A stretch of 64,000 bases of DNA, from contig MEDY01000089.1 in NCBI GenBank assembly GCA_001724265.1, positions 62,001 through 126,000 of the forward strand. Direction: 5' to 3'. The stretch is from Rhizaria sp. SCN 62-66 (taxonomy: Eukaryota). This document shows positions 4,601 to 48,446 of the stretch, one piece after another. The notes under the pieces are model-generated. The model made no database searches, had not been told where the DNA came from, and worked only from the letters and a program-made list of their open reading frames with translations. The stretch's first letter is position 1, and every line of letters starts with the position of its first letter. A program made the translations under genes and the position numbers.

Positions 4601-7600
4601 GCTCACACGCGTCGCTCTGCAGCAGCCCCGCGGCGACGGCGCCCCACTCCCCGTGCCCGCGCTGCGCCGCCAGCACGCTGTTGTACGCAAACGACCGCGG
4701 GTACGCCTGGGTCTCGGTGCGCGGGTAGCTGATAAAGCCCTCCATGTACAGGCTTTCTGCGACGGCCATCGCCTCAGCGGGCCCCAGCCCCAGTCCACGC
4801 GAGGCGACCTTGAGCAGCGAGACCGTGTTGAGCGGCAGTGGCCGCGCACGCGCGTGCGGGGTGACCATGATCGCGATAATAAGCGCGGGCACTGACGCCG
4901 CGCTCAGGATCGTCTCACGCTGCGGGGCGATACTTAGATCTTCCGAAGTGGGGTCTAAGGGTGGGGCGAGAGCGCGCGAAGTTGTGGCGTTGGGGGCGCA
5001 AGTGAGCAGCAACGCTTGTGCGATGGAGTGCGAGAACACACGGCCACGCTGCCACTGGAGCGGTAGCAACGTCGCAGCAGCAGCAACAGGGCTAGTTACT
5101 GCGTTGCTATGGCCACTGTTGCTGCTGAAGGTCAGTCGGCCTTCAGTGACCGTCTCGCTGCCACTCGCACACGTACAGTAACACGTGATACGATTGTTGT
5201 CAAAGCTCTTGCTACCACGACTGGGCTTCCGCGAAGGCTTAGAGCGCTTGTCCTTCTTCTTTGACAGACCATAGTCATCGTCGTCGTCATCCTCGTCATA
5301 TTCATAGTCGTCATCGTCACTATCGTTGTTGCTTGAGCTGAGCAGTTGGCCAATGCGATTATCCTCAACAAAGCCTTCGTCTTGGTTACCATCGTCACCG
5401 TAACCGCCAGCAAGAGCATCGCGGCAGCCATGATCCTTGGCACCCTCACAAGCGCCAGAGCAGCTGCACATACCACACGCACACTTCCTGCTCTTAATCT
5501 CACTCTCTGGGGCTAGCTCAACAGGAATGCAGATGTCGCCCGCGTTGGCAGCCGCTTGCAGGCACCAGTAGCGCTCCGGCCTAAACCGCGCGATCTCCTC
5601 GGCGCGCTCGACCACGAGCCCCAGCGTCGGCGTCACGCAAGGCCCGAAGCTCACCACGCTCGGCTCGCGCTCACTGAGGGCCCGCGGCTCACGGCCGCCG
5701 CGACCGCCGCGACCGCCGCCGCGAGACTGCTGTTGCTCACGGTCGCTGCTGTTGCTGTTGTTGTGGCTGCGGCTCGCGAGGCCGGCGTTGACGACGTCGC
5801 TGATCGTCACGGCAGTGCTGGAGCTGCTCGCAGTCTTATCAGTGATCGCACTGCTCTCATCGTTGCTCTGGTTATGGCTGCTGTTGTTGCCTGTGAGTTT
5901 GTAGTTGTGCTTCAGGTACATCGTCTGCAGCCGCGTGAAGGCCGCGCCCAGCTTCAGGTCCAGCTCCTGCCGCGCGTCCACCGACAGCGCCAGGTGCCGG
6001 TCAGGCCCGCGCATGCTACGAAGCGCCGCAGCGACGTCGCTGGGCGCCAGGGCCGAGAACACCGCGCGCCTGACCTGCGTTAAATGCGTGATCACATGGT
6101 GGTCTGGCGCGTTGAGCCAGGGCAGCGTGTTGTGGAGCACCTCGAAGGCGATGTTCTCGCCCTCGCGGTCGCAGTCGGTCCACAGCAACAGCGCGTCGGC
6201 GCCCGTCGCGCACAGCTGCAGGTGCGCCGGCACGGCCGCGCGCACGGGCACCTTGACCGTTTTGGCCCCAAACAGCGAGGTTGGGTCGACGCTCGCCCAG
6301 TCGTCAAAGCCGGAGACGAAATCAGTATTATACACGTGACCCGTCACAGAGGTGATGCGGAACAGGGCGTGGACACCGATAGCGCTCTGCTGAGACAGAA
6401 CAGCGGTGCTTGCGTCAGACTTGGTGTGACTTGTCTTCGGGACACCACGGCTGTTACGATCTTTGGCGCTGTTCTCATTGTTGCGACTCAAAAGCTTCGT
6501 GTAGTTGTTGTCGTTGTTGTAACTCGCATTGCTGCTGTTTTCCTTAATCTTCACGTCAGCGTCAGAGTCCGAGACGGGGTACACGTGGTAGATGCCCTTG
6601 AACTCGTGCACTGGCGGGGCACCGGGCTCTTCGCTGTTCGTCGTCTCGAACACCCCATCTGCACTCTCGCCGCTGTCACTATTATCATAGCTCTTGTTGT
6701 TGCTATTGTTGTTCGATTTGTAGCCGTTTGTCTGCGACATGCTACGGGCAAGCGCGAGCGCAACAGAAGGCTTCTCCGCAACGCACAACACGACGAGCCG
6801 TCGCATCCGCTGCTTCCCTTCTTGCTCCGGCTCATGCTGCTAGTGCAGCAGCTCCCGCTCTTTCCCGCCTTTGAGCACGAGGTGCAGCGGCAGCGTCGGC
6901 ACGGGGCGCGTGCGCGGGGGCCGCGACCACGCCGCCACGGACTCGACCTCGATCGGCGCCGCCTCCCAGTCAAACGCGGCGACACGAGTACCCCCACCAG
7001 TTCCGCTGCCGTGCACGTGCGTGTGAGCGAGGGAGAGCAGCGCGGTAGGCGTCGCCGCGAGCTCCAGCGTGGCGGGGCCTGCGGCCACGACGCGGCCGCG
7101 CGAGGTACTTACATCGCCGCAAAGGGTGCTTACACCGCGAGTGCTATTGCTGCTGCTGCTGGCGTCAACGCCGTCCAGTGACTGATCGCTGTTGTTGTTG
7201 TTGTTGTTGATGCCATCTTCGTACTCCTTGAATGCAAGTACACCCTTAGACTGCGAGTGCTGATACGGCGTCCGATCTAAGGGCTTGTTGAACTCCACTG
7301 GCATATCCCAGCCTCCCATGCCGCTACCACGGCCGCCGCCGTCGCCGTCGCCAAGCTCAGCCGCCGCGGCCTCGGCATCGGCAATCTCTAGCGCGGCCAC
7401 AGCAGCGCTGTCGCCGTTCACATTGCTGCCGTTGCCGTTGCGAAAATTGCCGTGCTTGCCAGGGCCGTTGGCGTGAGGGCGAGGGGCAGGCCGCGTGCCT
7501 TTGTGGCGCACGAGGCTGCCGATAGCAGGCGCACCGACATCCTTCACAGCGCTCGCGCTCGCGCTCGCGCTGGCGCTTGCGCTGGCATTGATGCTGCTCT

Positions 7601-8081
7601 CGGTTTTGCTCGCCGCATGCGCCACGTTGCCGTAGCTACCGCTGCGGTCGCTTCCGCCGCCACCGCGGCCGCCCCTGCCCTCGCCGCGGCCGCCGCCGCG
7701 ACCGCCGCGGCCGCGAGCATTGGACCCGTCGTACGCGCTGCTGCTGTTGGGATTGCCGCTGTAGGGCGACGCGGCGTGCGCCAGCGACTCCAGACCGGCG
7801 TCGCGGCGATACTGCGGCTGCCGGCTGCTGATGACAGCGCTCGCAGCAGCACTCGCGTGAGTGGTGTAGCTCGAGCTCGAGCTCGAGTTAGAGTTGGCGA
7901 CTGAGTAGCTGTGTGCGTTAGCGTTGTTGTGGGGGCGTGTTGTGTCGCACATTTCGCAGCACGGAAGAAGCGCGTTGTTGGAAAAGGTGCAGCTGGGGCA
8001 GTTCCACTCGTGCGCAGAATATGCGTCTGTTGTTGAAGCAGACGCAGCCGCGGGCGCTGAGCCGCGCGGTTGGTACGACAT
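1666..8081 (-). CDS. TOP3B: DNA topoisomerase III beta with many low-complexity insertions; probable N-terminal RanBP2-type zinc finger/RGG extension joined through an in-frame TAG at 6842-6840 (about 2075 aa if joined)
   Basis: Toprim VAEKPSVA, TSVTGH, WTDCDREGENIAFEV; ELDLKLGAAFTRLQT; catalytic GFISYPRTET; HPPITP; GIGTDATIPVHI; TOP3B-type C-terminal Cys clusters (CGDC, LYCVTC, CPYDGF, YPLCPCCYNHPP). Intron 3730-3543 (GTACGG...TTCAG). Core from ATG 6806 is secure; the extension to ATG 8081 depends on TAG readthrough. Stop TAA. Confidence 0.92.
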
Positions 8082-9060
8082 CAAGGTTTGAGCAGTACCA
8101 ACTCAAGGAACGCAAAAAAGGATTTGACCAACAAACGCAAATCTATACAACGTATAATTAAGAGGTTAAATATAAAAGTAGTGTTTAATATCCAAATGTT
8201 CAGCGGCGTTCTAGTTGACGGATAATACGGTGTATGGCAGGTGCGTTTTAGAGCCAAATACGCAGATCTTGTCTACGTGACCCGTGACATAAACACAGTA
8301 TTTCAGAGGACATGTCGTCGAAGCAAGTGAGTTACGGGATGTAGGAGTATTTTTTTGAACCTTTAGCGCTTTATTAGTAATATTAGAGGGATGCGCCTTT
8401 AAGTTCATTCCATATAAAACTTATATTTTGTGATTTTTGTTAGTGTTACTGACATGACATCATACTACTTGTACACATAATGAAAGTAAAATGAATGGTT
8501 GCTAGACTCAGTTCTCGCAGCAACAGCAGCAGCACTGCTCCCAATGCTAGCAACGACAGGGATAGTATCGTTACCGTTGTGGAGCGCTGCGACTGGAGCG
8601 AGCAAGAGCTGAGAGTGGAGACACGAGAGTTGCCGACGCACAGTCACGGAGTCACGGAGTGCAAGCAGCACCAGAGCGAATGCTCAGGATTGCGGCTGTA
8701 ACGGTGACTGTGGGACTGATATGATATGTAACGGAGGAGAGTGCTGTTGCTGCTGAGACTGCCGCTGCAGCGGCCTTAGGCTAAGTTAGGCCGCCGCGAT
8801 CTACTTACACATCAGACAGAGCGCTTCATCAAATGATGAAGACAAGGAGTGTAAACAGACTCTCGACGAAGGGACGACAGGGGCAGAGGCAGCGGCAACA
8901 GCACGACGCGACAACGCTGAGTGTCGAGAAGGGGAGTGACGTATCACTGCAACGACGGCAACACTACAACGACTGAGGATCACTTACGACTCACTAATGT
9001 GAGCGTAAGGCAATTGCAGTTGCGTGTGCTGACGCGGTTGCGGCGACAGAGAGGTGGGAA

Positions 9061-14651: not shown

Positions 14652-15608
14652 TCAGCACAAGCAGCAGCCCCCACTCTACCGGCGGCCGCTCACCCCGTCG
14701 GCGAGCGTGGGCGACACGCTGGCGAGCCGCTCAACCAGCGCGGCGTAGAGCTGGTCGTGCTCGGGGTCGGCGAGGGCGCCCAGCTCCTTCAGCTTGCGCA
14801 GTTGCGTCAGGCGCTCCGCCGTGAACACGCGCTCGACGGTGTCGGCAGCGGGCAGGGCGGCGGCGGCGGCCAACAGGTGCAGCATGTCCGCGCGCGCGGC
14901 GTCAACCGAGGTGCAGAGGCCCAGCGCGAACTCGAGCGCGGGGCTCAGCGCCACGGCTTCGATGTCGGCGGCGTAGCGCGCCTGGTTCTTGCGGAGGATC
15001 TGCGACAACACACGGAGCGCCGTTTGGCTGAGCTTGAAGGCCTCGTGCGCGAGGTTCGCGCTGGGCACGGCGGCGGCCAGCGCGGCGCGCAGCGCGGCCA
15101 CGATGTCGTCGCGCGCGTCGTCGGACAAGGCCGGCGCGTCGGGGGAAAGGACGAGCGCGCTCAGGACGTCAGTGATCGCTCGCGACTCCTCAATCCGCGC
15201 CGATTCATCGATATTGCGGCGGAGGCGCGCGGTGAGCTTGGCGAGTGTCGCGGGGGTCGCCAGGCGCGCACCAGTGGCCGCATTGGTGCGCGTAATCTTG
15301 GCGAGAGAGCCGAGGAGCAGCGCCTTGGCGCTCTCCTGGTGCGGGCTCGCGAGCAGCTCACACACGGTCTCGACGAGGCCGCTGTCGAGAAGTGCGGCAC
15401 AGCCAGCGGCGGTGCGGGTGAAGCAGACCAGGACCCCAGCCACAATCTCGGACCCGCGCGAAAGCGCGTTGTCGTCCATTGCGGAGACGAGCAGCTTGAA
15501 CAGCGAGGGGAACGTGTTGTTCTCGATGCACAACTGCAAGAGCTTCGCAAAATCCTCCTCCGTCTCGGCCTCATCAACATCGAAACGGAGTTTGCTGGCC
15601 ATAAACAT
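14652..15608 (-). CDS. ARM/HEAT-like helical protein; 310 aa to TAG (14678-14676), or 318 aa ending ...GRR(X)SGGCCLC-TGA if TAG is read through
   Basis: Strong GC3 bias and Leu/Ala-rich amphipathic helices (GCAALLDSGLVETVCELLASP). After the TAG the frame reads AGT GGG GGC TGC TGC TTG TGC TGA. The start is uncertain; an upstream exon is possible. Confidence 0.75.
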
Positions 15609-17158: not shown

Positions 17159-17190
<32 letters not shown>

Positions 17191-17918: not shown

Positions 17919-20845
17919 ATGAGCTCTAAAACTAAGCTTCAGCAACAACCGCAGTTACAGCCCCAGCAGCAGCCCTCGCAGCCCGCCCATGAGCACGATG
18001 CGGCCGGCGCGGACGGCGACGCGCCGGTGTTGGTGACGCCCGAGACGACGGCGGCGATGCGGGCCGCGATGGCACAAATCGCCGTCGCCACACAGGGGCT
18101 CGACGCGTTTGACTCTGACGCCGACGGGGGGTCGGACTCGGGGGTGCACACGGACGACGACGACGACGACCACGAGTATGAACACGAGCTGGACGACCAC
18201 GAGCACGGCCACGACGCTGGCCGCCGGAGCACGCACGGCAAACCGTCTCACCACGGTCACAACGATGGAGTGAAGGCTGCGGCGACTGCGGCTGAGACTG
18301 AGCAAAAGCAGCAGAAGCTCGGACAGGAGGACGAGGAGGAGGACCACGCGATTATCAACGACGACGATGAGCACAACCAGCTCCACAACGCGCACGCGAA
18401 TGTCAGCACCGGAGACAACGCTGCCGTCGCGGTCCCAGTTGTGGTCATCACCAAACCTGCCAAGACGACTGTTACGGCGACGACGGCTGAGACGGCTGAG
18501 ACGGCGGAGACCGGCGGCATGACTGCGAGCACTAGCATGACCACCGTGGGCAACAACAACAACAGCAGTTTTGCCGGCGCCAAGTCCATCTTCCGCCGGC
18601 GCAAGGTCAAGATTCCACGCCACCTCAAGACCAAGCACCGCAAGATCGACCGCGCGCATCCCGAGTTCGAGCTCACCTACGACATGATGCTCGGCATCCG
18701 GACCACGGTCAGCATGGTTGAAGCGAAGCCGCACCACGCGCTCTACCCCAAGGACTACACAGCCGAGATGAAGCTGCGCTTCCCAGGTACGGACTAGAAC
18801 AAACAGAGCACATGAAGACATTGATATCCCATGTTTGCGTTTAAACGTTGATTGAATGTCCAGAATATCACGGCTTACATTTTCTACACTCAACATTCTC
18901 ATCATCCACACACAATCTTTCTTTCCTATCCTTCATTGCGCTATTTCTCTTCTTAGGCAACGGCTCGCCGATGACCCCCGCGCACGCAGCCCGCGACTTC
19001 AAGTTTAAGGACTACTGTCCCGAGGTCTTCCGGCACATCCGCGCCCGGTTCGACATCGATCCGGCGGAGTACCTGCTGTGCGTGTGCGGCAACTTCGAGT
19101 TCCTCGAGTTCATCAGCAACTCTAAGTCGGGCCAGTTCTTCTTCTACTCGCACGACCGGCGCTACATGATCAAGACCGTTTCACAGGGTGAGTCTAAGTT
19201 CCTGCGCAAGATCTTGCCGGAGTACTACGCGCACATCATGGCGCACCCCAACACGCTGCTCACGCGCTTCTTCGGCATGCACCGCGTCAAGCCGCACAAG
19301 AAGCGTGAGCAGCACTTCCTCATCATGGGCTCGGTCTTCTACACTCAACGCACCATGGACCTCGTCTTCGACCTGAAGGGCTCCTCGCAGGTAGGTCGAA
19401 ACTTCTCATTAGAGTCAGAAACGAACAACTTTGCAAAATTCTTCACCGTTCGCTTTTATTATATGACGGTTATATGAAATGTATGATGATTTATTCAATT
19501 GGCGAACACATATCTTGCCATTTCTAACTTTTTTCCCCCTGCTTTTTGTCCCTTTCCCCAGGGCCGCAACGCGACTGAGGCGGAGAAGAAGCAGCAGGGC
19601 GGCTGCGTGCTCAAGGACAACGACTTCGTGGCGATGAACACGCGCCTGTCACTGGGCCCGACGCTGGGCGCGGCGCTGACGCAGCAGATCGCGGCCGACG
19701 TGGCGCTGCTCGAGCGACTCAACATCATGGACTACTCGATGCTGCTCGGCATTCACGACACGGCCGCGCGCGTCGGCGTCGCCCTCCCGGCTCACGTGCT
19801 CTCCCCTAACGGCAGCCATCACGCCGGCGCCGGCGCTGGCGTTGCGGGCGCCGGTGCCGCTGCTGCTGCCGCGGGCGCGGGCACAGGCGCATCTGGGAGC
19901 CCTCATGTAAGTGGCGGCAATCTAAGGGGGTCTGTGTCCGCGCCCGCGTTTATCACGACACACCCCAACAACCCCGTTTTCAACGCCAACAGCAACAACG
20001 GTCACAACAACAACAGCATCGGCAATAGCAACCTAGCTGACCACAGTGCTAGCCCTGCCACAGGTTCGCCGTATGGCCCCGAGACGCCCGGTGTGAACGC
20101 CAACGCTAGCAGCAGCGCCAACGGCCACGGCAACACCAACCAGTTTGCGACCGCGACTGCGAGCGCGAGCGGCGCTAACTCCTCGTTCAGTCTCAACTTT
20201 AACGGCGGCGACGGCGTGAATGCTGGCGGCGATGGCAGCAACGGCGAGTTTGTCTTCAACGGTGACGAGTCCAACCTGGAGGCCCAGGGCCCCCCGGCGG
20301 CCGTTATCGCCGCCGCCGCCGCCGCCTGCGGCATCAGCGCCGCCCACATCAACACGTATACCAACTCCAGCGCTGCCGCTGCCGCTGCCGCCTCGAGCTC
20401 CCCCACGGCCAGCGCCGCGCTGAGCGAGGCCGAGGCTGAGGCGGCCGCGGCAATCGCCGCGCTGTCGCGGTCACTTCTCGAGGTAGTGATTGAGGGCGGC
20501 CACTACTGGTACCTGGGCGGGGTGTACTACGACCACACGGGCACCATCGCGGCCTACGACGACGACGATGACGACGACGGCGACAACGGTGACGACGGCG
20601 ACGCCCAACAGAAGTCCGAGACCGACACCAACGCGAGCGCTGCTGTTGCGACAGAGAGCAGCAGTAGCCTGGCTCTCGGTCAGCTGCCAGCGGTGGCTGA
20701 GGCCGAGGCCGAGGCCGAGGCCGAGACCGCCACCTCATCTGCCTCCACCGACTCGCCTCTCAAGAGTGAGGCGAGGCCTGAGACCAAGTCCAACGCCGAC
20801 GCCGACGCCGACGCTGACGCTGAGACTGAGGCTAAGAAAGCTGGC

Positions 20846-20921
<76 letters not shown>

Positions 20922-23900
20922 GCAGCAGCAGCAGCAGCCTGAGCAAGAGTCTGCCGCCACCAAGAGCATTGTAGAGACTCGCGACGCCGACGCCGACGCC
21001 CACGCCCAGACCAAGTCCAAGGCCGGCGCCGCTGACGACGACGAAGGCGACGTCGAGGGCGGCGACGTCAGCGGGCCCTTAGTCAAGAGCGTGAGCACCC
21101 CCTTAGCCATGGGTGTCGGGGTAAGTAGCCCCCAGGGCGGCGCGCGCGGCTCGGTGCAGTTCCACAACGCGGCCGCGCTGGACCCAGCGTTCTCGCTCGC
21201 GCTCAAGCAGCGGAAGCAGCAGCAACAGCAGCAGTTACAGCAGCAGCAGCAGCTTGCGTCCAATGCGCCTGAGACCGCCGACACCAACTATGTTGACGCC
21301 GACGCCGACGCCGACGCTGGCGGTGACGGTCAGACTGATGGCCCCGTCACGCCGACCCGCCGCCGCAGCCTCAATGCCACCATCAACGCCACCAAGTCGC
21401 CCGCGAACGGCACTGGCACCGCGTTCAACTCGCCCGCCGCCGTCAACGCGGGCACTCTGGAAAACGCGAGCACGATGCGGCCCCCCGCACACCTGGGCGC
21501 GCTCACGGTCAGCTCTCCCTCGATCTCGCGCACCGGCCTCCCCACCAACGCCAACAACAACGCCAATGGGAACGCAGCTGCGGCAGACTCTCAGTCGCAG
21601 CCATCATCGCAGGTCCCGTCGCAAATGCCTGCGTTCTCGCGCGCGGTCTCGAACCTCTCGCACAGTAGCAGCAGCAGCAGCGTCGGCAGCAGCGGCGCGC
21701 AGACCACGACCCACGCGGACCGGCTGCGCTCGCAGCTGGCGCGCTCGGGCACGCTCGGCAACCTGCGTCTCCTGCCGCCTAACACCACCACTAACGCTGC
21801 CGCCACCGCCGCTGCCGCCAACGGCTCCACTGCTCTGACCGCCAACAGCAGCAGCAGCAGCAGCTCGCTCGCCGCCAACGCCGGTGCCGGCGCCACTGGT
21901 GCAAGCGCAGGCGTCGTGGGTAGAGGCAGCAGTTTGAGCGTGAGCGGCGCCGAGGGGCCGGTCGTCAGGCGCAGTGTTATCGTCCACGTCGCCGCACACG
22001 GCCACCTGCAGCCGCCTGCGACCGCCACCGCTGCGGGCGCGAGCGCCGGCGGCGCCAGTGCCAGCGCCGCGGACGCCACTGCCGCCGCTGCCGCCGCCGC
22101 GGTGGCTGCCGGTGACGTTAGCGGGCAGCAGTCGCAGCAGCAGCACCACAGCGGGCTCGTGCCCCGCCACCCGCACACAGCCAGCGCCAGCGCCAACGCC
22201 ACCGCGAGCGCGGGCGACGACAAGAACAATACCGCTGCTGGCTCTGGCGTTGGCTCTAGCTCCGACGCGCTCGCGGCCTCCGCCTCTGCATCCAGCTCGA
22301 CTGGCGCTGGCGCTGGCGCTGGTTCTGGCGCGGGCGCGGGCGCTGCGACGGTGCCAGTGGGGGCGTTCCGGTCGTCCCTGGTGCTGTTGCAGCCTCTGTC
22401 GGCTCACACCGCCAGTTCTACCACGAACGCCGCCGCCGCCGAGGCCAAGACTCACGCGGCGCAGACGTACACGGGAGGGACAAGGCACGGAAGCATAAGC
22501 GGCGGCATCGGCGTCACCGCGCTCAAGGGCAAGTCATTCGCGCACTACTCCACGCTCCCCGCGGCCTCCGCGGCGCACAGCAACGCTGCCACGGGCAATG
22601 CCAACGCTACGACCAACCCCAACTCGACGACAAACGCTAGCAGCGCAAATGCGAGCGCTAATGCGAGTGAGAGTGCGCACTATGCGATCCCGCTCAAGTA
22701 CGACGTCAAGGCGCGGCCCACGACGGCGGGCGGCGCGGGCGGCAAGTTCGTCGCCTCTGCCGCGCCGACCGAGGAGGAGCTCCAGCGCCTGCTCACTGTC
22801 ACCGACACCAACAACACCGCCACCGCTGCGACGGCGACTACGAGCGCGAGTGCGAGTGACGAGGCGGGCGTGGCTGAGGGCGCGCCCGTCGTTGGCACGC
22901 TGGGCGACGGCGACAGCACTGGCGCCGGCAACGCTGGCATGACTGCGACTGAGATCGTGCGCGCCAGAGCGTTGTCCAAGACCCAGCAGCATCAGCAGCA
23001 ACAGCAACAGCAACAACAGCAGGAGCAGGCGGCTGACAGCACTGCCGGCAACGGCAACGGCAGCGCTACTCAGTCTGACGCTAATGAGGGCACCAGCGCT
23101 CCTGCTGGCCGTGGTGCTGAGACTGTGAGTCCCGCTGACGTCACTGTCGCTGTGGTGACGGCTGGCGACGAGGCGGACAAGACTGCTCAGAGCACCACCG
23201 CAATCAAGCCTGACGCGGCTGCGGCTGCTGCTGCTGCGACCACACTCGCTGCGCCTCTCCCGGTTGCCGCCACTGTCGCTACAGGCGCTGCCGACGACAA
23301 CAAGAGCGCAGGGGCTGGCAAGTCTGCCACTCCTGCGACCGCGGCAGACGGCAACAAGAGTGCTGCAAATGATGACGTGTCTGCGAAGCCTGCGACTGCG
23401 GCTGCGGCGACTCAAAGTCAGGCCGCGTCGTCATCATTGGCTAGCAGTACTGATGCGAATGTTAAGGCGACGGCTAGCGCCAGCGCTGGCAAGGATGGCG
23501 ATGAGATGACGAAGCCTGATGCCGCTACTGCTAATACCAAGCCCGCCACCGCCACTGCCACTGCCACTGCGGCCACGTCTGCAACTGCGGCCGCGACCGC
23601 GGCTAAGCCCGCCGCCCCCAAGCCCACCACGGCTACTGCTGCTGGATCTAGCGCGCGCCCCGCAGCTGCCTCAACTGCAGCCGCAACCGCTGCGCCGCGT
23701 GTGGCGACTGGGCTGCCGTTCGAGCCGGCGTACTCGATCTTCATGCGGGATGACGGCGGCGTGCGCGGCCGCGACGCCGCGGGGCGCCACACGAACCTGG
23801 TCTACTACTTTGGGCTCATTGACATCCTCACGTTATACAACTGGAAGAAGCGCGGAGAGAGCTGGTTTAAGGGGCTGACGCACAATAAGGACGAGATCAG

Positions 23901-24069
23901 CGCAGTGCACCCGAAGAAGTACGCACGCCGCTTCATCGAATACATGCGCAAGGGCACCGACATGCCCGACGGTGCGGCGTCCCCCGGCAGCACCGCTGCC
24001 GCTGCGTCAACTGCCGCGGCTGCAGCGCCCGCTTCGGCCGCTGCTCCGGCTGCTGCGAAGAGGAAGTAA
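17919..24069 (+). CDS. Phosphatidylinositol phosphate kinase (PIP5K/Mss4 type) with a very large kinase insert; apparent 1-nt frameshift at about 20921 in a CAG tract (about 1936 aa corrected)
   Basis: Exons 17919-18786, 18957-19390, 19562-24069. Motifs YDMMLGIR, FKFKDYCPEVFRHIR, SKSGQFFFYSHDRRYMIKT, TLLTRFFGMH, FDLKGS, LKDNDF, IMDYSMLLGIH, and C-terminal YYFGLIDILTLY...ISAVHPKKYARRF. Stop TAA. Confidence 0.93.
20849..20937 (+). repeat. (CAG)24-AG-(CAG)5 trinucleotide microsatellite (polyQ) inside PIP5K
   Basis: Read directly; the single missing C shifts the reading frame. Confidence 0.95.
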
Positions 24070-37800: not shown

Positions 37801-39411
37801 GACGTCTGCGCCCGCAGCGTGCGAGCAGGTGGCAGCGTGAAAGCGCGCCATGTCTCTGTGCGTAACCGTAAGCACCACCGTTTTGGTGAAGGCAAGCGCT
37901 TTGAGGCACAGCTCAGCCTGTGTCACACTCACAGTTTCTGTAGCACTCGCAAATGTATGCGGCACGCTTGCGCCACCTTCAGGAGATCTAGCAACAGCCA
38001 CGCCGCCCGCGTACATTGGCGCCACGCAGTACTGCACTGTTGCCGCAACAGCTCTTAGCGCACGGCTTACAGAGCAGACCCAGCCAGTCGCAGGGGAGCT
38101 CTCTGCGTCGTCATTGCTGGGGCCGGGACCAGGGGCCGGACGAACATTTGCTGCGCAGGGTGTAAACTGAAGCAAAGCAATCTCCCAGTTGGTACTCAAG
38201 CCAAACTTAGGGCTGACAAGATACAGTGTGTACGCACCGTCAGCCCCAATAAAGGCGTCGTCTGAGTGAGAGTGGCACAGCTTGTTAGACAGGCGCACTA
38301 GCGGGTGCATCTGACTCGGCCACTGCTGCTGACGTAGTAGCTGCTGCAGAGCCGCTCCCCGCTGTACCTGGGACTGCGGCTGTGCGCGGTACCGCGAGGA
38401 TAACATCAACTCATCGCTGTCGTCATCAAGGTGCTGAGGCGAGAACACGCGGGTAACGACAGACTGCGAATGCACTTGCGAGGACGCTCTTATGACCGCA
38501 ACCGCACTTAGCACGTCCTGCCTCGTGTTCAAGTTGCGGACGGAGTCTTGCAAAGACACCCGCCGCAAACCCACGCCAAGTCCCTCTGCAAGCGCGTCGC
38601 TTGCACCAAGCCCTATCCCGTCGTAACCCGGCGCAGCCGCAGTCCGGGCGCCCCCGAAGCCCCACGCTGCAGAGCTCCATGCCGCGCCGTCTCGGCCCTG
38701 CGAGAGCAGCGAGCTCAGCGGCACGTCGTCTTCTTCGGTGGTGTTTTCGTGCCTGATTGCGGCCTTGACGGCACAGCCCAGCGGCGGCAGCCCGCAGCCG
38801 CCGAGCGTGGTGAGGTCCGGCAGCCCAGTCGCGAGCAGCACGTGCAGCGCGTCGGCGCTGCCCGAGCACGCGGACAGCGTCAGCGCGGTCCACTGGCGGT
38901 ACCGCGCAGCGTTAAAGAAAACGCGCTTGGCGGCGAGGAGCTCAGCGGCGGACGGGGCCATGGGCGGCGGGGGCGGAAGCGAGAGAGGAGATGATAGGTC
39001 GAGCGAGAGGGAGCAGCTGAGGCTCTCAGTCGAGGTCTGAATATGCATCAAACAAAAAGGATCAAGTTACAATAATACATATTTTTTTTAGTTAGAAATG
39101 ATTGATTTAACAAGTATTTCTTGAAGTGATGCAAATATAAGCTTGTAACGTACCATGGTGAGCCTTTTGAAGTTTGATGTGGCGCTAACTTGAAGCTGTT
39201 GCTGACCTCCTTGCTTCGGTGAGTGACTGCTGTGTGCTGAAAGAAAGTCGCTCGACTCAAAAAAAGCATTGCACTTATTTACAACTGTTTGGACAACAGC
39301 TGAATCGCCAAGAATAACCGCAAAGTCAAGTGCAGACAGTCCAATGCTGTCTTGAGCTGTTGGATCTGAGCACTCCTCCACGTCTGGTATAGACCACCGA
39401 GTTAGACTCAT
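34819..39411 (-). CDS. Large protein of unknown function with degenerate N-terminal ankyrin-like repeats, about 1491 aa, 2 exons
   Basis: Exons 39411-39154 and 39036-34819; intron GTACGT...TTCAG, phase 0. Ankyrin-like QDSIGLSALDFAVILGDSAVVQTVV and QWTALTLSACSGSADALHVLLATG...GLPPLGCAV. Stop TAA. Confidence 0.65.
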
Positions 39412-41162
39412 GGTGCTCTGCAAAGACGATTTGTGAGCAAATGCTAGAAAAGGAAACAAGTTAAAAGGCAAGTTAGTCTTTTCTTCAAGTGCTATATTTC
39501 ACATTAACGATGTGGGTATGTCAGGATACATGTTGAGAGAGGGACTTCGCACCTCGTGGTAGTCACCGTTTTTCTGAACTCAGCAAGCAAGAGTGCATTT
39601 GTGGTGGACTCACAAAATGTGAGCGAACTCACAATAAGCGTGACACTGCGACCGGTCGACAACTTTTATTTAATATGCCATGTGTCTAAATCACAACACA
39701 CACTTAATTATGCGATATTCTTTCTTCAAACCACTTCTGATCATGCCTGTGCACCTGCAAAAAGGAAGTGCAATCTAATGGTCACAAATCTGTTTGACGA
39801 AAATATATAGTAGATGTATTAGAAATGAACGTGCTCATGAGAGAACAAATGTGCACACGATTAATTAAATATACGGACCAGTCAAAATCAGGCTCAGTTC
39901 AAGCAGAAGAGATGCTTAAAAAGAATTGTCACGTGTCGCGAGCTTCGGCGGCAACACAATTGGACAATTGAAGAATGATGCTAACAGATAAAGCAAAGCA
40001 GTACGAGACTGACGAGGAAATGGTCGAATGAGAAAACCGATTAGAACCTAGAGGAGGTGAATCAAGTCTAAGCATGGATGAAAAAGGAAGAACAATCAAC
40101 AGACAAAAAATATGAAAGCAAACCAAGCCAACCAGAACATGAAAAACATTCACAGTCTTGAACACACATCAATATGAACAAACAGAAGGAGTTCCATTCC
40201 GTCTTGAACAACAATGCAGAAGCAGAGCAAAGTTGCGTGCATGCAGAGGCAAGAGGGCGGTATTGTTTGTTGAGAGTTGATGTTACCACGTATTGACTAG
40301 GTTAAATAGTACTCCGTGTTGCCATTGGGGCAAATATTGATGTGCGTTGTTCGGATTTGATTGTTGAGACGATAGAAAATACGAGGAGTTGAAGGAACAC
40401 ACTAACTCACAAAGACACAACAAGCAGTGACAACAAGCAGTGACAATATTGGAAAAGCTTCGTCAGGAACAACGAATCCATGACACTTACCTACAGCATC
40501 AGCAACACCATTACTCAAATACCATGTTTCGAAGCTTGAACTATGGCAAAACATTTCGGCATTGGGCTTCGCGCGGTCGACTGCAAGTGGAACAGTCCTT
40601 TGATGAGAAAGGAGTCCCACTAAAATACCTTTGCGAGCTCGATTATTGAGACAGAGTTTAGTTACACAACCATGTTGACGCAACTCACCTCTCCTTATGT
40701 TGTGCAATGTGCTGTACTCTGCCGTATGCTGTGCCATTGCGTTGTGTTGCGTTATTGTTGTCTTGGTATCGTGTTGTAGTTAAACTTTGTACTTGCATGG
40801 ACAGCATAAAGTACCCACAGTACTATTCCGCTCTGCGGATGTATCCACACTCTTTCCCCAGTCAAATTAAGATGGATAACAACGACGAAACATCGTTGTG
40901 GAGGTAAAACAGCGGTAATAAAACAAAATACAAACAACAATGATTAAACATGGTGACAACACCAACACTGGGCGTGTGTCAGGTAGGACTTCACAAAGTG
41001 AACGATTTGAGAGATGTGAAAACACAACAAGCAAAAAACGCAGTCGAAAAAAAAGAGAGTAAAAGATGTTACGTCGATGACGATCAATAAGCTAATGGAG
41101 CTGCGCGATGGCTCAAGAGAACAACGAGGGCGTATACGACTGACACGTCAGTCTCGACCGAC

Positions 41163-44100
41163 TTAAAGCGGCGTGTCTTGCGTCCGGCTGCGCTTACGCG
41201 TCAGCGGCTGCCTCGATAACAGCCCGGCACCGGAGCCAGCTCCAGTGCCCGTCCCTGTCATGGCCTGCCCAGGAGAAATAAGGCCATGAGAACCGAGACC
41301 GCCCTGGGAAGCCAAGCCGCCGGCGGACATCATGCCGTACCGAACGGCGCCCGTGGTCGCAACATTGGTCGCGGGCGCGCCGGCATGCGCTGCGCCGGTG
41401 CGGATACTGCTGAGGCCCATGAGGCTGCTGCTGAGGCCGCTGCCGCCAAGGCCGCCGGTCGCCAGGGGGCTGACGCCGAGCGCGTTGAGACCGAAGCCGT
41501 GGCCGTGGCCCAACGCGGGGACGCCGCCGACAGCGGGGGAAAAGGCCAGTCCATGGTGGCCGCCGTTGCCGTTGCTGTGAGAGACCATATGGAGCATGGA
41601 GCCGTTCGCAGCCGCGGCGGTGGCAGCGGCGACGCCCAGCGGCGGCGAAGGGGCCGGGGACGGCGCGCGCGTGTTGCTCGCGCTCACGCTGGCGCTGGCG
41701 CTCGCACTCGCGGTCGTGGTCGCGCTGGCAGTCATGGCCACGGCCGTAGTTGCAGCTGCAGCCGCTGAGTTGGGCGAGATGGGGATGGCGCCGAGGGCGT
41801 TGGCGCTGTTCACAAGCCCAGGTGAGGTGGGGTTGGAGAGGCGCGCCCGCACTCTCAGCTGCTGCTGCTGCTGCTGCTGTTGTTGTTGTTGCGCGCCGGC
41901 GTTGGCACCCGTGTTAAGGCTCATCACGGTCGCGGGCGGCGGCAGGCTGAGCGGGACCGACGGCGGCCGCAACAGCACCAACGGCACCTGCGTCAGCGAA
42001 GTCGGCGTCAGCGAGCTCGACTGCGAGCAGTGACTGTGCCCGCTGCCGCTGCCGCTGCTGTAGCTCTGGCTCTGGCTGTGGCTGTGGTGCTGGCTGTGAC
42101 TGTGAGCGTTCGCACTCAGGATAACAGTAGGGTTGGGCTTCGCCCTGATTGTAAACGGAGTGATGCTCGCGCTACTGCTGCTGGTGCTGCTGACGCTGCC
42201 ATTGAACGCGCTCGCGGCCTCGTCGTGCGACTGCTGCGTGTGCTTGCTCGACGCATTGCTGTCGTGCGAGAGCGTGCTGACGCCGCTGTCGGTGAGCGCG
42301 AGCGAGTGCAGGTGCAGTGCCAGGTCGGCGAGGTTCGGCGTCAAGAGCTGCTCCTGCGACGACACAAGCATGATCGGCATCGAGCCGATCACCGTCACCG
42401 CGGCAGGCACGGGCGCCGTGGGCGTCACCGTGGGCGTCACGGCCGCGCTCGCGGGCCCCGCGGAGCCAGATCCGGCGCCAGCCTGGGGCGGCAGCAGACG
42501 TGCGCCTGCCGCGGCAGAGCTGGCGGAGTATGCGCTGAGGCTGCCTTTGGAGGGTGCGAGCAGTGCTCTCGCCGCCGCAGGCGCAGCTCCAGCGCCAGCG
42601 CCGGCAGTCAAGCCAGCCTTGCTCGCGGCGGCAACGGCGAATGCAGATGGGAGCGGGGAGTGCGCGCGCGATTGCACACGCGATTGCGAGCGCGACTGAG
42701 CCTGGGAAAGACGGTGTCCACCAGCAGCGGGAGCGGGGGCGGCGGCGGGGAATGCGGGGGTGGTAAAGCCGGGCGTCAGCGGCAGCAGCGGGCTGGTGGG
42801 GTGTAGGAACATGGAGAATGGTCCCTGAAGATGTCCATGTCCTTGTGTCTGCGCCTGAGCTTGTTGCTGAGAACTAAGCGTCGGGGGGACAATGAGAGGA
42901 ACAAAGAAGACATCGTTGCCGCCAGTGACCGTGTTCGCTGCAGCCGCAGCCGCGGTCGCAGCCGTCGTCGCCGTCGGTGCAGCGCCGCCAGCAGCAGCGT
43001 TGCTGATTGCGCTGGCGTTGAAACTGTCGTTGTTGAGCGCGATCCGAAGCGGCGAGGCCGTCACGAAGAGCGACAGCGACGACAGCTTCACGTCCCTATC
43101 CGGCGAGGCGCGCGCGCTCTTTGCCGCGGCGCCGGCGTCGCCCTCCACCGACGGCTTGCGACTCGGCCCGGGGGTTGCGTTGCCGGCGGCGCCGGTATCG
43201 GCCACAGTCACGGTGACGGCGTCGCCCGGAGCGCTCTTTAGACTGCGGCCGCGGGTAAGGCGGCCGGGGGCCAGGCTGCTGCTCTGCGCGCTGTCGCTCG
43301 CACTCGCGCTCGCGTTAACGGCACTGGCAGCGGAGTCGGGCTCGAGCTCGACCTCCGTCTTCACGCGGGCCGCCTTGTCCAGCCCCGCAACTGCCGTCCT
43401 GTTCGCACCGCTGTTGTTGCCATGCGCGGTAACGAGCGCGGCGGCGGCGGCGGCGTTGACGTCGACGGCGACGAAGCCACTCTGGCAGTGCAGCAGCACC
43501 TGCTGCGAGGCGAAGGCCACCGCGTCGGCTGCCGAAGGGTGCGTGTGCACCTCGATGCGCGACTGGCCATGCAGCGGGTGCACGAGGCGCGACCGCGTCG
43601 TCGTCGTGTTGAGCTGGATCTCCCACTGCAAGTACCCCTGGGTCGACTCGGAGGAACCGGCGGCGGTCGGCACAGACACGGCAGACGCGGCAGTCGTGGT
43701 GGGGGACTGCGAGCGGCTGGCGGCGGCGCTGGAGGCGGAGCCACTGCTTGGCGGCGGCGACGGCGCGACGGCGATGGGCTTGAGCATGACGTGGTGCATG
43801 TACACCTCGCTGACGTTGTTAATGTTCATGAACTGCGCAACCGCGGCGGGAACAGAGCCGACGCCGCAGCCGCCGGCGCTGCCCCCGCAGGCAGTCGAGC
43901 CGGCAGCGCTCGCGCCGTCGGTCGGCTTGCCAGCGCCGCCGGCCGCGCCCGCGTCGCTAGAGGGCACGGGCGCGAACGTGGCCGCGGCGATCGACTGCGG
44001 CACGGTGAGCAGCGATAGCGGTCGGACAGTGAGCCCCACGGGGGCGTGGGCCGAGGGGGCAGAACCGGCGCCAGCGTTGCCGGCACTGGCGGCACTACTT

Positions 44101-47100
44101 TCCGTCTGCTGCAGTTGTTGCTGTTGCTGCTGGGCAGTATAGTACCTGCTCGTTGCCATGTTGAGCGCAAGCGACGGCGAGCGAAACAACGCCGCCCTAT
44201 CAAACGCCAGCAGCGACTGCGGCAACGAGCCCACCTCTGCATTAGCACCAGCGCCAGCGCCAGTGGCAGCGCCAGTGGCCGCTCCGGCGGTCGACGAGAC
44301 GATGCTGTTGTTGGCGCCCAGCGACGGGCGTTTGCCTCTGATGACGCGCGAGACGCTGTTCGCGCCGCTGTTGGCGCCGCCGTTGGCGCTGGCGGTGGTG
44401 GAGACCGAGGAGACCGATACCGCGGCCGAGCCCAAACTGTGCGGGCGCGAAGTCAGCGACCCCGAGGCGAGTCTCGAAGGCGGCCGGCTCAGCGCGGAGA
44501 GCAGGAGCGCGCCGCCGCTGTGGCCGCCGTTGTGGCCGCCGCTGTGGCCGCCGCCGGGGAAGCCGGTCCCCACCTGGGGCTGGGGCGTGAGACCGCTGCT
44601 TTGGCTGCTGAGCCCGAGGCTCGCCCCACCCACGCTGCCAACACTGCCGATGCTGTGTATACTGGACGTATGCTGCACAACGCCTGGGGCATGCGCGCCC
44701 GCGATGTGCAGCCCGGAGCCCAGGCCGAGGCCCAGGGCCGGGTTGCCAAGGGCCGAGTGACCCAGAGCGGCGCCCTGCAGGCCGAGGCCGCTCAAGGCGC
44801 CCGGGCCGCCGACGAAGCCGAGGCTGGGTCCGTGGCCCAGAGCGCCGGCCCCGGCGCCGGAGGCCGTGTGGCCCAGAGCGGCGAGCGAGGAGGAGGCCTT
44901 TTGGTGCGTCGCCAACGGGGACGACTTGAGGGTGCTGCCAATGCGACCAACAGGCAGCGGCTGCGGCTGCGAATGGTGCTGATCACGGTCGCGGTCGCTC
45001 ATCGCGTGCTGTTCAGATGCAGACACAGCGTTGGCAGCAGCAGCAGCGGCGGCAGTTGTCGTGACGGATTGTGTTGAGGCAGAGAAATAGAAAATGGGCG
45101 TGATGGGAGCACTCGCGTCGGTGTAAAGGGCGCCCACACGGCCCCCACTGGCGTCGAATCGTAACGTCCTCGCGCCGGCGTTCGCGCTGGAGACAGTCGT
45201 GGTCGAGTCGGCGCTCTCGGCGGCATCGGCCATTACACTGCCGCCGCTCTCAGTCTTGACATCCGGCTGTGTGGCGTTGCTTCCAGCGCCGACTGTGCTG
45301 CTGTTGCCATGGGACAGCGCGCGCGATAGCGAGAGCACGGTCGCGAGGCCCGGCGCGAGATTCCTGGCCAGGTAGTGGCCGTGTGCAGCGAGCACCAGCT
45401 GCTCCTGCTCCTGCTCGCGGTCGTGCTCCTGCTGCGTTTGATGCTGCTGCTGATGCGGTGGCGGCTGCGCTTTGACGCTGTCTTGCTTGACGAGGGCGCC
45501 CACGCTGCCGTGACCGTTCTGCTCCTTCTGCTCGGCGCTGGCGCCAGCGGGGAACATCACGGAGCTCGGCGTGTGCTGCACAAGAATAGTGCACGTGCTT
45601 CCCCCAGCCTGTTGCTGATGTTGCTGCTGCTGCTGTTGGGGCGGCTGAGGCGACTGTTGTTGCGGCGGAAGCGGATGCCTCATAGGCGACAGCGTCAGCG
45701 CATTCGGCTGCAGCGGCGGCTGCTGCAGCGGCTGCTGTTGTTGTTGCTGCAGTTGGCCCTGTTGCTGTTGCGCGGTGAACGGCGGCGGCGGCGGCGGCGG
45801 CAGCAGCTGGCCCGGCTCTAGTGGCGGCAGCGGCTGCGCGCTCATCGTGAGCCACGAGAAGACCGGCTGCACCGGCGCCAGCGGCGGCAGCGGCGACAGG
45901 GCCTGCGGCAGCGACCCGGGCGCTGTCTGCGTGCTACTGTTGCTTATAACGCTCACAACGCTCGCGCCGCTGGGGTTGATGTTGGTGGCGCTGAACACCG
46001 CCCTGTTGCTGCTGGCCACTCTCGCGGGCCCCACGCTCGCGGCGCCGGTGCTTTGCGCGGTGCTCTGGCCGCTCGAGCCGACATTGCCGCTGGCACTGGC
46101 GCTCGCGGCGGCGTTGCTGCTGTTGGTGTAAACGCCCTCTGCCTGGTCGAGCGCGGAGAGCACGGACTTGTCTTGTAGCGCGAGCAGGTCGGCTGAGCCC
46201 GCGCGCGTGAGCCACGGCACCACGGACAGAGACATCGTCGCACCGGCACCGACGCCGGCACCAGCACCGGCAGCGCCCGCGCCCGCGCCCGGGCCAGAAC
46301 CAGGGCCGGGGGCAAGGCCGGTGTTAGCGCCGGGCAGAGCCGGGCTCTGAGGCTGCGCGGCCGCGGGCGCCCCGAGGGGCGTGAGCGGGGTGAGCGGTGC
46401 CCGGTAGAGGCCCTGACCGGGAGCGGCCAGCGTGTGCGTCGCCCCGGCCGCGGCGCCGGCACCGTGGGGGCCCGAGGCGATGGGCTGGGACAGCAGCGGG
46501 GGCATCGAGAACACCGTCGGCTGCGTCGTCTGCACAAGACTGGCGTCACTGCTGCTGCCGTGGCCGTGGCCGTGGGCGTGACTGCCGGCGTGTGCGATCG
46601 CCGCGCTGCCCGCGGCGTGGCTCCCGGTGGCGCCGTGGAAAGGCGGGTCGAAGTCCGCAACGCCTTCGTAGATAGTCGCGAGCGAGGGCTGCGTGTAGTG
46701 ACCCGCGCTGTAAGGGCCGCCGGCCGCGTAGGAGGTCCCGCTAAGGGTGTTGGTGGAGGGGTTGTAGGTGACTGTGCTCGCCCGGCCCCAGGCCGCCTGC
46801 TGCTGCAACTGCTGCTGTTGCTGCAGCTGGAGTTGGAACTGTTGTTGCTGCTGTTGCGACTGGATCTTGCCAGAAGCGTTGACAGCGTGGTGGTTGTCTA
46901 CAAAGCTGTCCGACATCTGAACAGGCACGGCCGTCGCTGCGGCCGCGTACGGGCCGTGGCCCCCCGTTGTCCTGACCTGCTGTTGCTGTTGCAGCTGTTG
47001 CTGCGGGCGGCCATGTTGGGACACCTGCAGGTAAGCTGCATTCATCTGCTGCTGCTGGAGTAACTGCTGCTGTTGCTGCTGTTGTTGCTGTTGCTGGAGC

Positions 47101-48446
47101 TGCTGCTGGAGCTGTGGCTGTTGCTGGAGATGTTGCTGCGCCAGGGTGAGGGGCTGGTACTGCACCCCATGCGCCTGCGCATGTGCCTGGGCCTGAGCCT
47201 GAGCCTGCGCCTGGGCAAACAGCTGAGCCTGCAGATACGCTTGCGTCTGCGCCTGCATATGTGTATGCGCCTGCGCCTCTGCATACCCGTTGCCAATGTG
47301 ACCGTGAGTGTGACCGAGAGCGAATGTGTAGCCCTGGACGCCGTGGCCCGCAGCCTGCGGCGGCGGCAAGCTGATGACGGGCTCTGCGGCGGCGGCAGCC
47401 GCGGCGGCGACTTTGCCTTTGCGCGCGCGCTTCGGCTGCTGCTGCCCCAGCTCGGCGCCGGTAGAGGCGGCCAGGTAGCCCTGAGCAGCGCCGTAGCCGC
47501 CGCCGTCAGCGCCGTAGCCGGCGACGACGGCGGCATGATCAATGTCGGCGAGTTTAGCGGTCTTGCCAAGATTGGCAAAGCCCTTAGGCTTTCCGCCTGC
47601 AGCGACAGCGGCGGCTGTGGCGGCAGCAGCGGCAGCAGCAACAGCGGCGGCGTTGGCAGACGCCTTGCTTTGCTTGCCAGAGGCCGCAGTAGCCGCTGCG
47701 CCAACCCGGCCGCGGCCGGCAGCGCCAGCACCCGTGACGGCGTTCGCGTACGAGTTGGCCGCCGCCGCTGCAGCCGCCGCCGTCGCCGCGTCGAATTGCG
47801 GGGCCCAGCCAGGGGCGCCGTCGCCGCCAGCGTGGCCTCTTCCGTACGCGTCACCGTACGCGTCGTCGTTGTCGTCGTTGTCGTCGCCAGCGCGCGCCGT
47901 CGCCGCGCCAGCAGCCGCGCTCGTAGCCGCAGCGATGTTGGCGCCACTGACGCCGCTCGCGGCAGAGTCTTTGCTAGCGTTGCTGGTGCGGCCGCCCTTG
48001 CCCTTGTTCTCGAGGTTCTTGTCCTGGAGCTCCTTCATGGTGAGCGTGACAGCCTCCCACAGCGGGCCCGCCTGCTGCTGCGTGGTGGTAACGACGAAGC
48101 CCTTGAGGCGCTTCTCGCGCACGAGGCGCTTGGCGACCGAGAGCGCGTTGCGTGCGCTGGGATGCTCGAATGTCGACTCGCGGCCCGCCGAGCCCAGCGA
48201 GCCGAAGTACACCATCTTGTGCTAGTCCTCGACCTCAACCTACGGAGAGGCGCATAAAACGATTAACGGCAAAATACGGGCATGAAATAGTGAGGGTGCG
48301 TCAGAGCGAGGGTAGGCAGAGCGAATTAAGAGCGAACGATCGAGAGGGGGAGCATGGGAGGATGCAATGAGGATTGAACGTACACGCCAGAACTTTTGTT
48401 CCTCTGCATGTTCGAGATTTATGATAAAGCGGCGACGCTTGTCCAT
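41163..48446 (-). CDS. WGR-domain protein with long Q/A/S/G-rich disordered regions, about 2379 aa; in-frame TAG at 48224-48222 inside the WGR domain
   Basis: Exon 1 48446-48384 (MDKRRRFIINLEHAEEQKFWR); intron 48383-48240 (GTACGT...CCGTAG); exon 2 begins VEVED*HKMVYFGSLGSAGRESTFEHPSARNALSVAKRLVREKRLKGF, which fits the WGR pattern KFWxIxV...GRIG..GQ...A...A.KL..EK.KKGY. Stop TAA. Confidence 0.8.

Follow-up and report, generated by a model that had tools for sequence, protein, structure and literature searches.

Genes at the three TAG sites

Three in-frame TAG codons, numbered here as sites 1 to 3, are present on the minus strand of the window, the whole 64,000-nucleotide stretch of DNA that was analysed (Table 1). 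All three had been noted in an earlier sequence-only reading, which described meaningful coding sequence after each of them. This is the case at sites 1 and 3, and not at site 2, where seven codons are followed by TGA. The window has a GC content of about 60%, with GC3 values of 0.63-0.88.

Sites 1 and 3 are TAG in other DNA as well. The site 1 codon is unchanged in L001. This metagenome contig, which belongs to a different collection, has one mismatch to window positions 8292-3597 in 4696 bases, at 8289. Site 3 is spanned by two further contigs, one (X3) covering 47369-48525 with no differences and the other (X4) covering 47917-49015 with two, neither of which is at the TAG. The TAGs are stable across assemblies from at least three studies, and in two genes, those of sites 1 and 3, TAG interrupts genuine coding sequence.

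Table 1. Features at the three TAG sites, by position in the window
Feature	Position	Strand	Description
TOP3B exon 2	1666..3542	-	ends with TAA 1668-1666
TOP3B intron	3543..3730	-	188 nt; GTACGG...CACTTCAG
TOP3B exon 1	3731..6806	-	Toprim and type IA topoisomerase core, large low-complexity inserts
ATG 11 codons after site 1	6804..6806	-	usual TOP3B N-terminus (MRRLVVLCVAEKPS); start of P0001
Site 1 TAG	6840..6842	-	between zinc-finger/RGG frame and TOP3B; followed by CAGCAT; intact in L001
Frame upstream of site 1	6843..8081	-	413 codons (ATG 8081), in the TOP3B frame; probable zinc finger, RGG box, coding-like GC3 and codon usage
Tail after site 2	14652..14675	-	seven codons (SGGCCLC) and TGA; DNA AT-rich past the TGA
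Site 2 TAG	14676..14678	-	end of 310-codon helical-repeat-like frame (ATG 15608); followed by A
WGR exon 2	41163..48239	-	2357 codons and TAA; mostly low-complexity
ATG 2 codons after site 3	48213..48215	-	A at -3, G at +4
Site 3 TAG	48222..48224	-	codon 6 of WGR exon 2, VEVED-TAG-HKM; followed by CACAAG; intact in X3 and X4 contigs
WGR intron	48240..48383	-	144 nt; GTACGT...CTCTCCGTAG; signals shared with 8 other introns of the window
WGR exon 1	48384..48446	-	ATG and 20 codons, ending KFWR

The frame upstream of site 1 contains a probable RanBP2-type zinc finger (about 7932-8009) and an RGG box (about 7656-7718), from which non-repetitive sequence continues to the TAG. Its GC3 is 0.76, and both GC3 and codon usage are coding-like on either side of the TAG, in the same frame. 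The finger scores 22.8 bits for PF00641, against a Pfam cut-off of 27. There are 49 library matches at E<=1e-3, the best at 1.8e-10, all of them on the finger and RGG part. PF00641 is found in eight of the ten longest matches scanned and a topoisomerase domain in none of the ten, the matches being generic RanBP2-finger proteins only. A BLASTP comparison of this frame with the N-terminal extension of P0003 gave no similarity beyond the start of Toprim. No homologues alignable across the TAG were found for sites 1 and 2, nor were intron signals found near site 1.

The gene downstream of site 1 is identified by sequence as that for DNA topoisomerase 3-beta (TOP3B), on the basis of its Toprim domain (E 5e-9) and type IA core (Topoisom_bac, E 6.8e-53), both in exon 1, with best matches that are all TOP3B and a tree that agrees. 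After splicing, the frame runs open through 1650 codons and aligns collinearly with homologues. ATG 6806 is also where gene call P0001, of a different assembly, begins, and 16 of 25 fetched TOP3B homologues begin no more than 12 residues from AEKPS. N-terminal extensions are present in eight of the 25, including the window's own clade, and RGG repeats in four of these eight. The AT-rich spacer that is typical of other intergenic regions is absent before this ATG.

At site 2, a stored gene call (P0122, 308 aa, found on 6 contigs) ends at the TAG, and a homologue search with the ARM-like protein matched only itself. With A as the next base and TGA 8 codons on, this TAG resembles the other terminators, of which 7 in 11 are followed by a purine, and looks like the ordinary terminator of its gene.

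The WGR-like domain around site 3 is collinear only when the 144-nt intron is removed. This intron has a length divisible by three and contains a single AG, at its very 3' end; a pyrimidine tract precedes all 9 modelled 3' splice sites in the window. Two HMMs were built from bacterial WGR domains, one of 5 sequences and one of 20. With the first, the spliced form scores 25.4 bits, versus 14.2 from the downstream Met; with the second it scores 21.0 bits. It is the top match among 883 six-frame pieces. Pfam WGR (PF05406) scores 18.1 bits over residues 9-51, on exon 2 alone, against a gathering cut-off of 22, and a Pfam scan of the unspliced translation did not detect exon 1. The WGR N-terminus had no match among longer proteins at E<=0.01. 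The TAG aligns to a variable hairpin position that is T, A or L in the 5 bacterial domains, and T in 2ra8_A. A protein begun at Met 48215 would lack the opening strands of the one domain that is recognisable in it. A second WGR-like unit in the same protein was considered and rejected, since 8 of 300 shuffles matched its local alignment score of 42 and the HMMs missed it.

Contigs from RNA runs are sparse over the window. The one from run X5 (48228-48626) has the WGR intron unspliced and ends 4 nt before the site 3 TAG, and so decides nothing there; DNA carry-over is possible in this run, since it also covers AT-rich DNA past the gene. The splice joint 48383/48240 is not among the 15 joints listed for RNA contigs.

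In the TOP3B tree the organism groups with a cercozoan sequence, in a clade with Mataza, which suggests that it is possibly rhizarian. This uncultured protist, probably a cercozoan, lives in wastewater reactors, and its DNA is rich in GC and poor in introns. Rosculus was rejected as the organism, its genome having 37.7% GC (PMC10770858) against about 60% in the window. Its sequences turn up repeatedly in public metagenomes of reactors, from several studies, and also in one poly(A) RNA library. A metagenome scan with TOP3B returned L001, from the same organism, and three unrelated AT-rich loci (L002-L004).

Codon counts, terminators and stop codon context

Under the standard code the 12 gene models end in 10 TAA, 1 TGA and 1 TAG. 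The earlier count of 10 TAA and 2 TGA, and never TAG, holds only with site 2 read through, which makes the argument from it circular. Once introns are modelled, no internal TAA or TGA was found in the genes, in agreement with the sequence-only reading. The 15,771 modelled codons contain two or three in-frame TAGs and no others, whereas base composition by codon position predicts about 152 for an unconstrained TAG. When TAG is read as Gln, the AT-rich spacers yield no new coding frame. Of the one-step nonsense paths that this codon usage allows, 64% end in TAG, so that the presence of TAG only is weak evidence for recoding. Elsewhere in the window the PIP5K frame, absent from the earlier account, shifts within a CAG run; single-base defects, real or made in assembly, therefore occur in this sequence.

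All three TAGs coincide with natural borders of open frames under the standard code. An in-frame ATG follows 11 codons after site 1 and 2 codons after site 3, for which the joint chance is 0.27%, ATG being 1.13% of codons. The two TAGs previously described as followed by CA are those of sites 1 and 3, and the chance of both is 0.52%, with codons starting CA making up 7.2%. TAG-CA is a partial weak-termination context. Of the six positions in the motifs CARYYA and CARNBA, CAGCAT (site 1) agrees at four and CACAAG (site 3) at two, the full motif being present at neither site. The 100 nt 3' of each TAG fold no better than 200 shuffles each (z -1.12 at site 1 and -0.29 at site 3).

Possible explanations for the internal TAGs

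The best reading of these data is that the code is standard and that two premature TAGs are tolerated, although this is put forward tentatively, as somewhat short of an even chance. The organism would still read TAG as stop, with site 2 a normal gene end, and sites 1 and 3 would be genuine premature TAGs in sequence that is coding now or was so very recently. The first would be located within an N-terminal zinc-finger/RGG extension of TOP3B and the other within a WGR-like domain at the N-terminus, in its first beta-hairpin. Both may persist because their cost is low. The in-frame ATG that is 2-11 codons past the TAG could start the main body of the protein, which for TOP3B would be exactly at the usual N-terminus of the family, and the weak TAG-C(A) context may allow some full-length product through natural readthrough. 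The code itself would be unchanged across the genome.

Several observations count against tolerated TAGs. Two such genes in about 13 is far above what is expected for chance nonsense alleles, and both genes are under selection, as judged from their intact downstream frames of 1650 and 2352 codons. Internal initiation in TOP3B needs either a promoter within coding sequence that is GC-rich or reinitiation following a 420-codon frame, both of which are unusual, and the WGR protein from Met 48215 loses part of its domain. The N-terminal extensions and RGG repeats among TOP3B homologues favour one continuous protein. In addition, TAA is the terminator of 10 of the 12 models despite the GC3 of these genes, a bias shared by both UAG-only lineages described in PMC5304391.

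It is unlikely that UAG is a sense codon genome-wide, whether through a complete but very young change or at an ambiguous stage, with TAA as the main stop and TGA as a minor one. Such a code would fit the interruption of proven coding sequence by TAG in two genes out of about 13 and by TAA or TGA in none, as well as the stability of the TAGs across the assemblies of at least three studies. If site 2 is read through, TAA ends 10 of the 12 genes and TAG ends none, which resembles exLh and Iotanema, and the partner in the TOP3B tree is cercozoan, the sole known rhizarian case being one in which, as described in PMC5304391, UAG alone is reassigned. However, the modelled genes have 683 Gln codons, of which 524 are CAG, and the 2-3 TAGs would be 0.3-0.4% of these, against about 8% in Iotanema (PMC5304391). 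None is within a Gln-rich tract, including the long poly-Gln tracts built from CAG, and none aligns to a conserved residue, that of site 3 being at a variable hairpin position. Reassignment would also make both the proximity of ATG and the CA context coincidental, and would turn site 2 into a sense codon 8 codons before the end of its gene. Scans of the window for tRNAs and Rfam families gave 0 matches, so no tRNA gene was found within it. The suggestion of a UAG-to-sense code is thus unsupported by the rarity of TAG, the lack of a conserved residue at any of the TAGs and their positions at frame borders.

Selection could instead have favoured programmed readthrough of UAG at two genes under the standard code, with short and long products that are both functional, in the manner of gag-pol. 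This is doubtful. Although an in-phase coding frame follows the TAG at both sites 1 and 3, and a fusion of the zinc finger and RGG box to TOP3B is functionally sensible given the RGG boxes of TOP3B homologues, the WGR gene would have as its upstream product a peptide of 26 residues, implausible as a functional one. The cases of cellular readthrough known to us add short C-terminal tails and never the bulk of a protein, which also counts against a programmed event. RNA folding 3' of both TAGs is no better than that of shuffles. A C at +4 and CAR-type hexamers are reported to favour readthrough, and CA follows both TAGs, but the match to the motifs given in PMC4132726 is only partial. Removal or change of the TAG in RNA, through editing or an alternative 3' splice site at site 3, or the choice of one allele or strain by the assemblers, is very unlikely. 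The TAG of site 3 could itself be used as a 3' splice site with the frame preserved, but splicing at this second AG reduces the WGR score from 25.4 to 14.0 bits and no pyrimidine tract precedes it, and the unspliced RNA contig does not bear on the matter. No intron signals are near site 1. Contigs drop rare variants and could thus hide a second allele, against which TAG is found in at least three independent assemblies, with no alternative letter among those listed at 48222-48224.

Comparison with known systems

N-terminal nonsense alleles can be rescued when translation starts from an ATG a short way downstream. The TAGs of sites 1 and 3 are similar in being near an in-frame ATG with the downstream frame intact. 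They differ in that the stop in TOP3B comes after a frame of about 420 codons, where reinitiation is normally inefficient, and in that 2 of 13 genes is unusually many. If the TAGs are tolerated nonsense alleles the finding is an ordinary one, and it warns that genes interrupted only by TAG are to be expected in GC-rich genomes.

For the change of a stop codon to sense, two models are debated, one in which the codon disappears first and one with an ambiguous stage, and the cases known to us are all far advanced. It is conceivable, though quite unlikely, that this organism is at the very start of such a change for UAG. It would then be a living example of the ambiguous intermediate, and Rhizaria would have a second UAG change, independent of the first. 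In this reading UAG would be nearly gone as a terminator, with TAA as the working stop, and the first tolerated UAGs would be leaky with a back-up ATG. If true, a handful of UAGs in weak contexts would allow direct study of the first steps.

The context-dependent codes of Condylostoma and Blastocrithidia offer a parallel, in that one codon would serve as a terminator at site 2 and as a sense codon at sites 1 and 3. In those codes in-frame stops are abundant and involve all three codons, as described in PMC5304391, whereas in the window they are TAG only and very rare. Leaky readthrough of the TMV type (UAG-CARYYA, with CARNBA in yeast) resembles the window in having UAG followed by CA and in-phase coding sequence downstream (PMC4132726). 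The window differs from the systems described there in its incomplete hexamers (4 of 6 and 2 of 6 positions), in the lack of unusual 3' structure and in that most of the protein would lie in the readthrough part.

A literature search found no rhizarian or cercozoan reports of UAG reassignment beyond exLh. In Amoeboaphelidium, as described in PMC5304391, UAR is reassigned rather than UAG alone. The same source gives 384 in-frame UAGs in 71 genes for exLh, a rhizarian with UAG as Leu, with 56 UAA and 15 UGA stops, and 204 in 126 genes for Iotanema spirale, with UAG as Gln, and with 104 UAA and 15 UGA stops. As in these two, only UAG is found in frame in the window, UAA is the main terminator and UGA a minor one. 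They have 1.6-5.4 in-frame UAGs per gene, many of them at hyperconserved Leu or Gln residues (PMC5304391), whereas the window has 2-3 TAGs in about 15,800 codons, none of them at a conserved position and all of them beside an ATG or a stop.

Gene models and affinity of the organism

The window is eukaryotic DNA with a GC content of about 0.46-0.70 per 2 kb, laid out as long GC3-rich frames with AT-rich spacers in between. About 13 genes and 9 introns were modelled, all predicted from sequence. The introns are about 100-222 nt long and mostly near gene 5' ends; all nine begin with GTA[CT]G and end in a pyrimidine-rich stretch and YAG. Scanning of the 64-kb window found no tRNA genes and no Rfam matches. 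The DNA recurs in reactor and wastewater metagenomes from several studies, and partly in one poly(A) RNA library. In a TOP3B tree (29 rows, quick IQ-TREE, SH-aLRT support only), the window and four unnamed or little-known sequences form one clade with 100% support, whose members have long extensions at the N-terminus and sizeable low-complexity inserts. The four (P0002-P0005) are three metagenome proteins and one attributed by source name to the cercozoan Mataza, because of which the organism is probably a rhizarian, as placed from this one gene.

The frame change in the PIP5K gene has parts of the domain in both halves around it, and an intron signal was not found nearby. It is either an assembly indel in the repeat or a real frameshift.

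Features of the window and their coordinates
Feature	Coordinates	Description
Site 1 TAG (TOP3B)	6842-6840 (-)	
Frame upstream of site 1	ATG at 8081 (-)	Open for 420 codons in the TOP3B frame
TOP3B length difference	~5700-5720 (-)	In-frame 9 nt (Gly-Gly-Arg), window versus P0001
Site 2 TAG (helical-repeat-like gene)	14678-14676 (-)	Ends 310-codon frame; then SGGCCLC (7 codons) and TGA
PIP5K gene	17919-24069	
PIP5K frame change	20850-20930 (+)	Within long CAG run, one base fewer than clean repeat
1415-codon gene, start	39153-39156 (-)	Start codon apparently an exon by itself, ATG directly followed by GTACGT; intron of ~115 nt
Contigs past WGR stop	40217-40626	From X5 (poly(A) RNA) and X7 (another run); 0.5-0.9 kb past the stop
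WGR exon 1	ATG 48446	21 codons, ends KFWR
WGR intron		144 nt; GTACGT start, pyrimidine tract and TAG end; no AG before its end
WGR exon 2		Begins VEVED-TAG-HKM
Site 3 TAG (WGR)	48224-48222 (-)	
RNA-run contig at site 3	48228-48626	Intron unspliced; ends 4 nt short of the TAG
4136-codon frame	51588-63998 (-)	Runs past window end; last 1470 residues without Pfam match

Coding sequence around the three TAG codons

The TAG reported in TOP3B by the sequence-only reading is present in the window and also in L001, a separately collected metagenome contig (4695 of 4696 bases identical). The ATG that follows it, at 6806, opens a textbook TOP3B N-terminus, and the gene has Toprim (E 5e-9) and type IA core (E 6.8e-53) domains. 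Once a 188 nt intron is spliced, the frame is open for 1650 codons and collinear with homologues. P0001, a gene call on another assembly of the organism, begins at the same Met. Upstream of the TAG, GC3 is 0.68-0.83 and codon usage is coding-like right to the TAG. At E<=1e-3, a full-library search with this frame matched 49 proteins (best E 1.8e-10), in every case over a RanBP2-type zinc finger and the adjoining RGG stretch; among the ten longest matches, eight have the finger and none a topoisomerase domain. Composition, codon usage and these matches together identify the upstream frame as real coding sequence. No AT-rich spacer lies between it and TOP3B; other same-direction pairs in the window are about 0.5-3.6 kb apart.

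Of 25 TOP3B homologues fetched, 16 begin at most 12 residues from the AEKPS motif, eight have an N-terminal extension (four of these with RGG repeats) and one starts further downstream without the motif. Extensions are also present in P0003 and P0005, from the window's own clade. Such extensions, some with RGG, favour a zinc-finger/RGG/TOP3B protein that would ancestrally have been continuous. The Met at the canonical TOP3B start favours a putative separate initiation at Met 6806.

The site 3 TAG is likewise unchanged in contigs from two other runs in two other studies. Exon 2 alone matched the second half of the Pfam WGR domain at 18.1 bits, under the 22-bit cut-off, and the solved WGR protein 2ra8_A aligned to it from VED onward (E 0.17). 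Two HMMs, a 5-sequence short-hairpin model and a mixed 20-sequence model, were built after fetching 35 bacterial WGR domains; the former was picked after its collinearity was seen, and the latter gives the fairer figure.

Scores of WGR forms (bits)
Form	5-sequence HMM	20-sequence HMM
Spliced at first AG, X at TAG	25.4	21.0
Exon 2 only	18.1	17.7
Unspliced	17.1	16.2
From Met 48215	14.2	17.4
Spliced at second AG	14.0	17.2

When the N-terminal 28 residues were shuffled 1000 times, the top score of the 5-sequence model was reached once; 1000 pieces of 28 residues, drawn at random from other proteins of the window, never reached it. For the 20-sequence model these counts were 6 and 5. Of the 883 pieces obtained by six-frame translation of the window, the WGR N-terminus was the top match for both models. 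The alignment crosses the TAG without a gap and places it at a hairpin position that varies. Given the scores, alignment and rank, the first WGR strands are predicted to be encoded, now or until recently, by exon 1 together with the five codons ahead of the TAG. The sole RNA-run contig here decides nothing on splicing or the TAG, and the run also covers AT-rich DNA past the gene. The contigs past the WGR stop, on AT-rich, non-coding-looking DNA, may represent an extended 3' UTR, a separate transcript or carry-over of DNA into the library.

At site 2 the protein has no detectable relatives, so homology cannot fix its true C-terminus, and the DNA past the TGA is AT-rich. The TAG is most simply read as an ordinary terminator; the following base is A, and a purine likewise follows 7 of 11 other terminators. 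Readthrough into a Cys-rich tail draws its sole support from the GC content of the 21 bases past the TAG, which falls within the range of other 3' flanks. The claim of coding sequence past all three TAGs thus stands for sites 1 and 3 but not for site 2.

Reassigned codon or tolerated stop

None of the hypotheses fits comfortably, and the confidence given to the four readings is a matter of judgement. That UAG is sense or ambiguous genome-wide is unlikely. It gains from the finding that TAG lies within real coding sequence in two of about 13 genes and TAA or TGA in none, so that the proposal of TAG alone interrupting genes survives except for its third case, site 2. It gains too from the TAA terminators of 10 of 12 genes, a strong preference against compositional bias (GC3 0.63-0.88). 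However, positional composition would predict about 152 TAGs in the 15,771 codons, and only 2-3 occur in frame. Within the window, none lies in a long CAG tract or at a conserved residue, and reading TAG as Gln revealed no hidden genes. A model under the standard code would place a border at each of the three in any case: 11 and 2 codons ahead of an ATG at sites 1 and 3 (joint chance 0.27%), and 8 codons ahead of the TGA at site 2. CA follows both internal TAGs (chance 0.52%), A follows the terminal one, and one-step nonsense paths lead to TAG in 64% under the window codon usage. Neither the nearby ATGs nor the CA context would be expected of a fully reassigned codon; both would be expected of a stop that is tolerated only at sites where its cost is low.

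The reading tentatively preferred, at somewhat less than even chances, is that the code is standard and that two premature TAGs are tolerated. These would persist only at places where harm is small, with downstream ATGs used for initiation and possibly some natural leak through the TAG. Yet two such genes among 13 are many, and the downstream frames are intact at both sites. TOP3B would have to be initiated internally past a 420-codon frame, or be driven by a promoter of its own within the coding sequence, and the one domain that can be recognised in the WGR protein would be lost. Also awkward for the standard code, the CA contexts fit the published readthrough motifs CARYYA/CARNBA (PMC4132726) at only 4/6 and 2/6 positions, and no unusual RNA structure was found downstream of sites 1 and 3 (z -1.1 and -0.3). 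Selected readthrough of UAG is as unlikely as a sense or ambiguous UAG genome-wide. Removal of the TAG at the RNA level, or allele choice, is highly improbable.

Comparison with UAG-only codes

In favour of reassignment, the terminator bias of the window is described for both classical UAG-only lineages in PMC5304391. There, the fornicate Iotanema spirale (UAG=Gln) has 204 in-frame UAGs in 126 genes, about 8% of its Gln codons, and the rhizarian exLh (UAG=Leu) has 384 in 71 genes. TAG would be 0.3-0.4% of Gln codons in the window, and on these published counts its in-frame UAGs are far rarer than in either.
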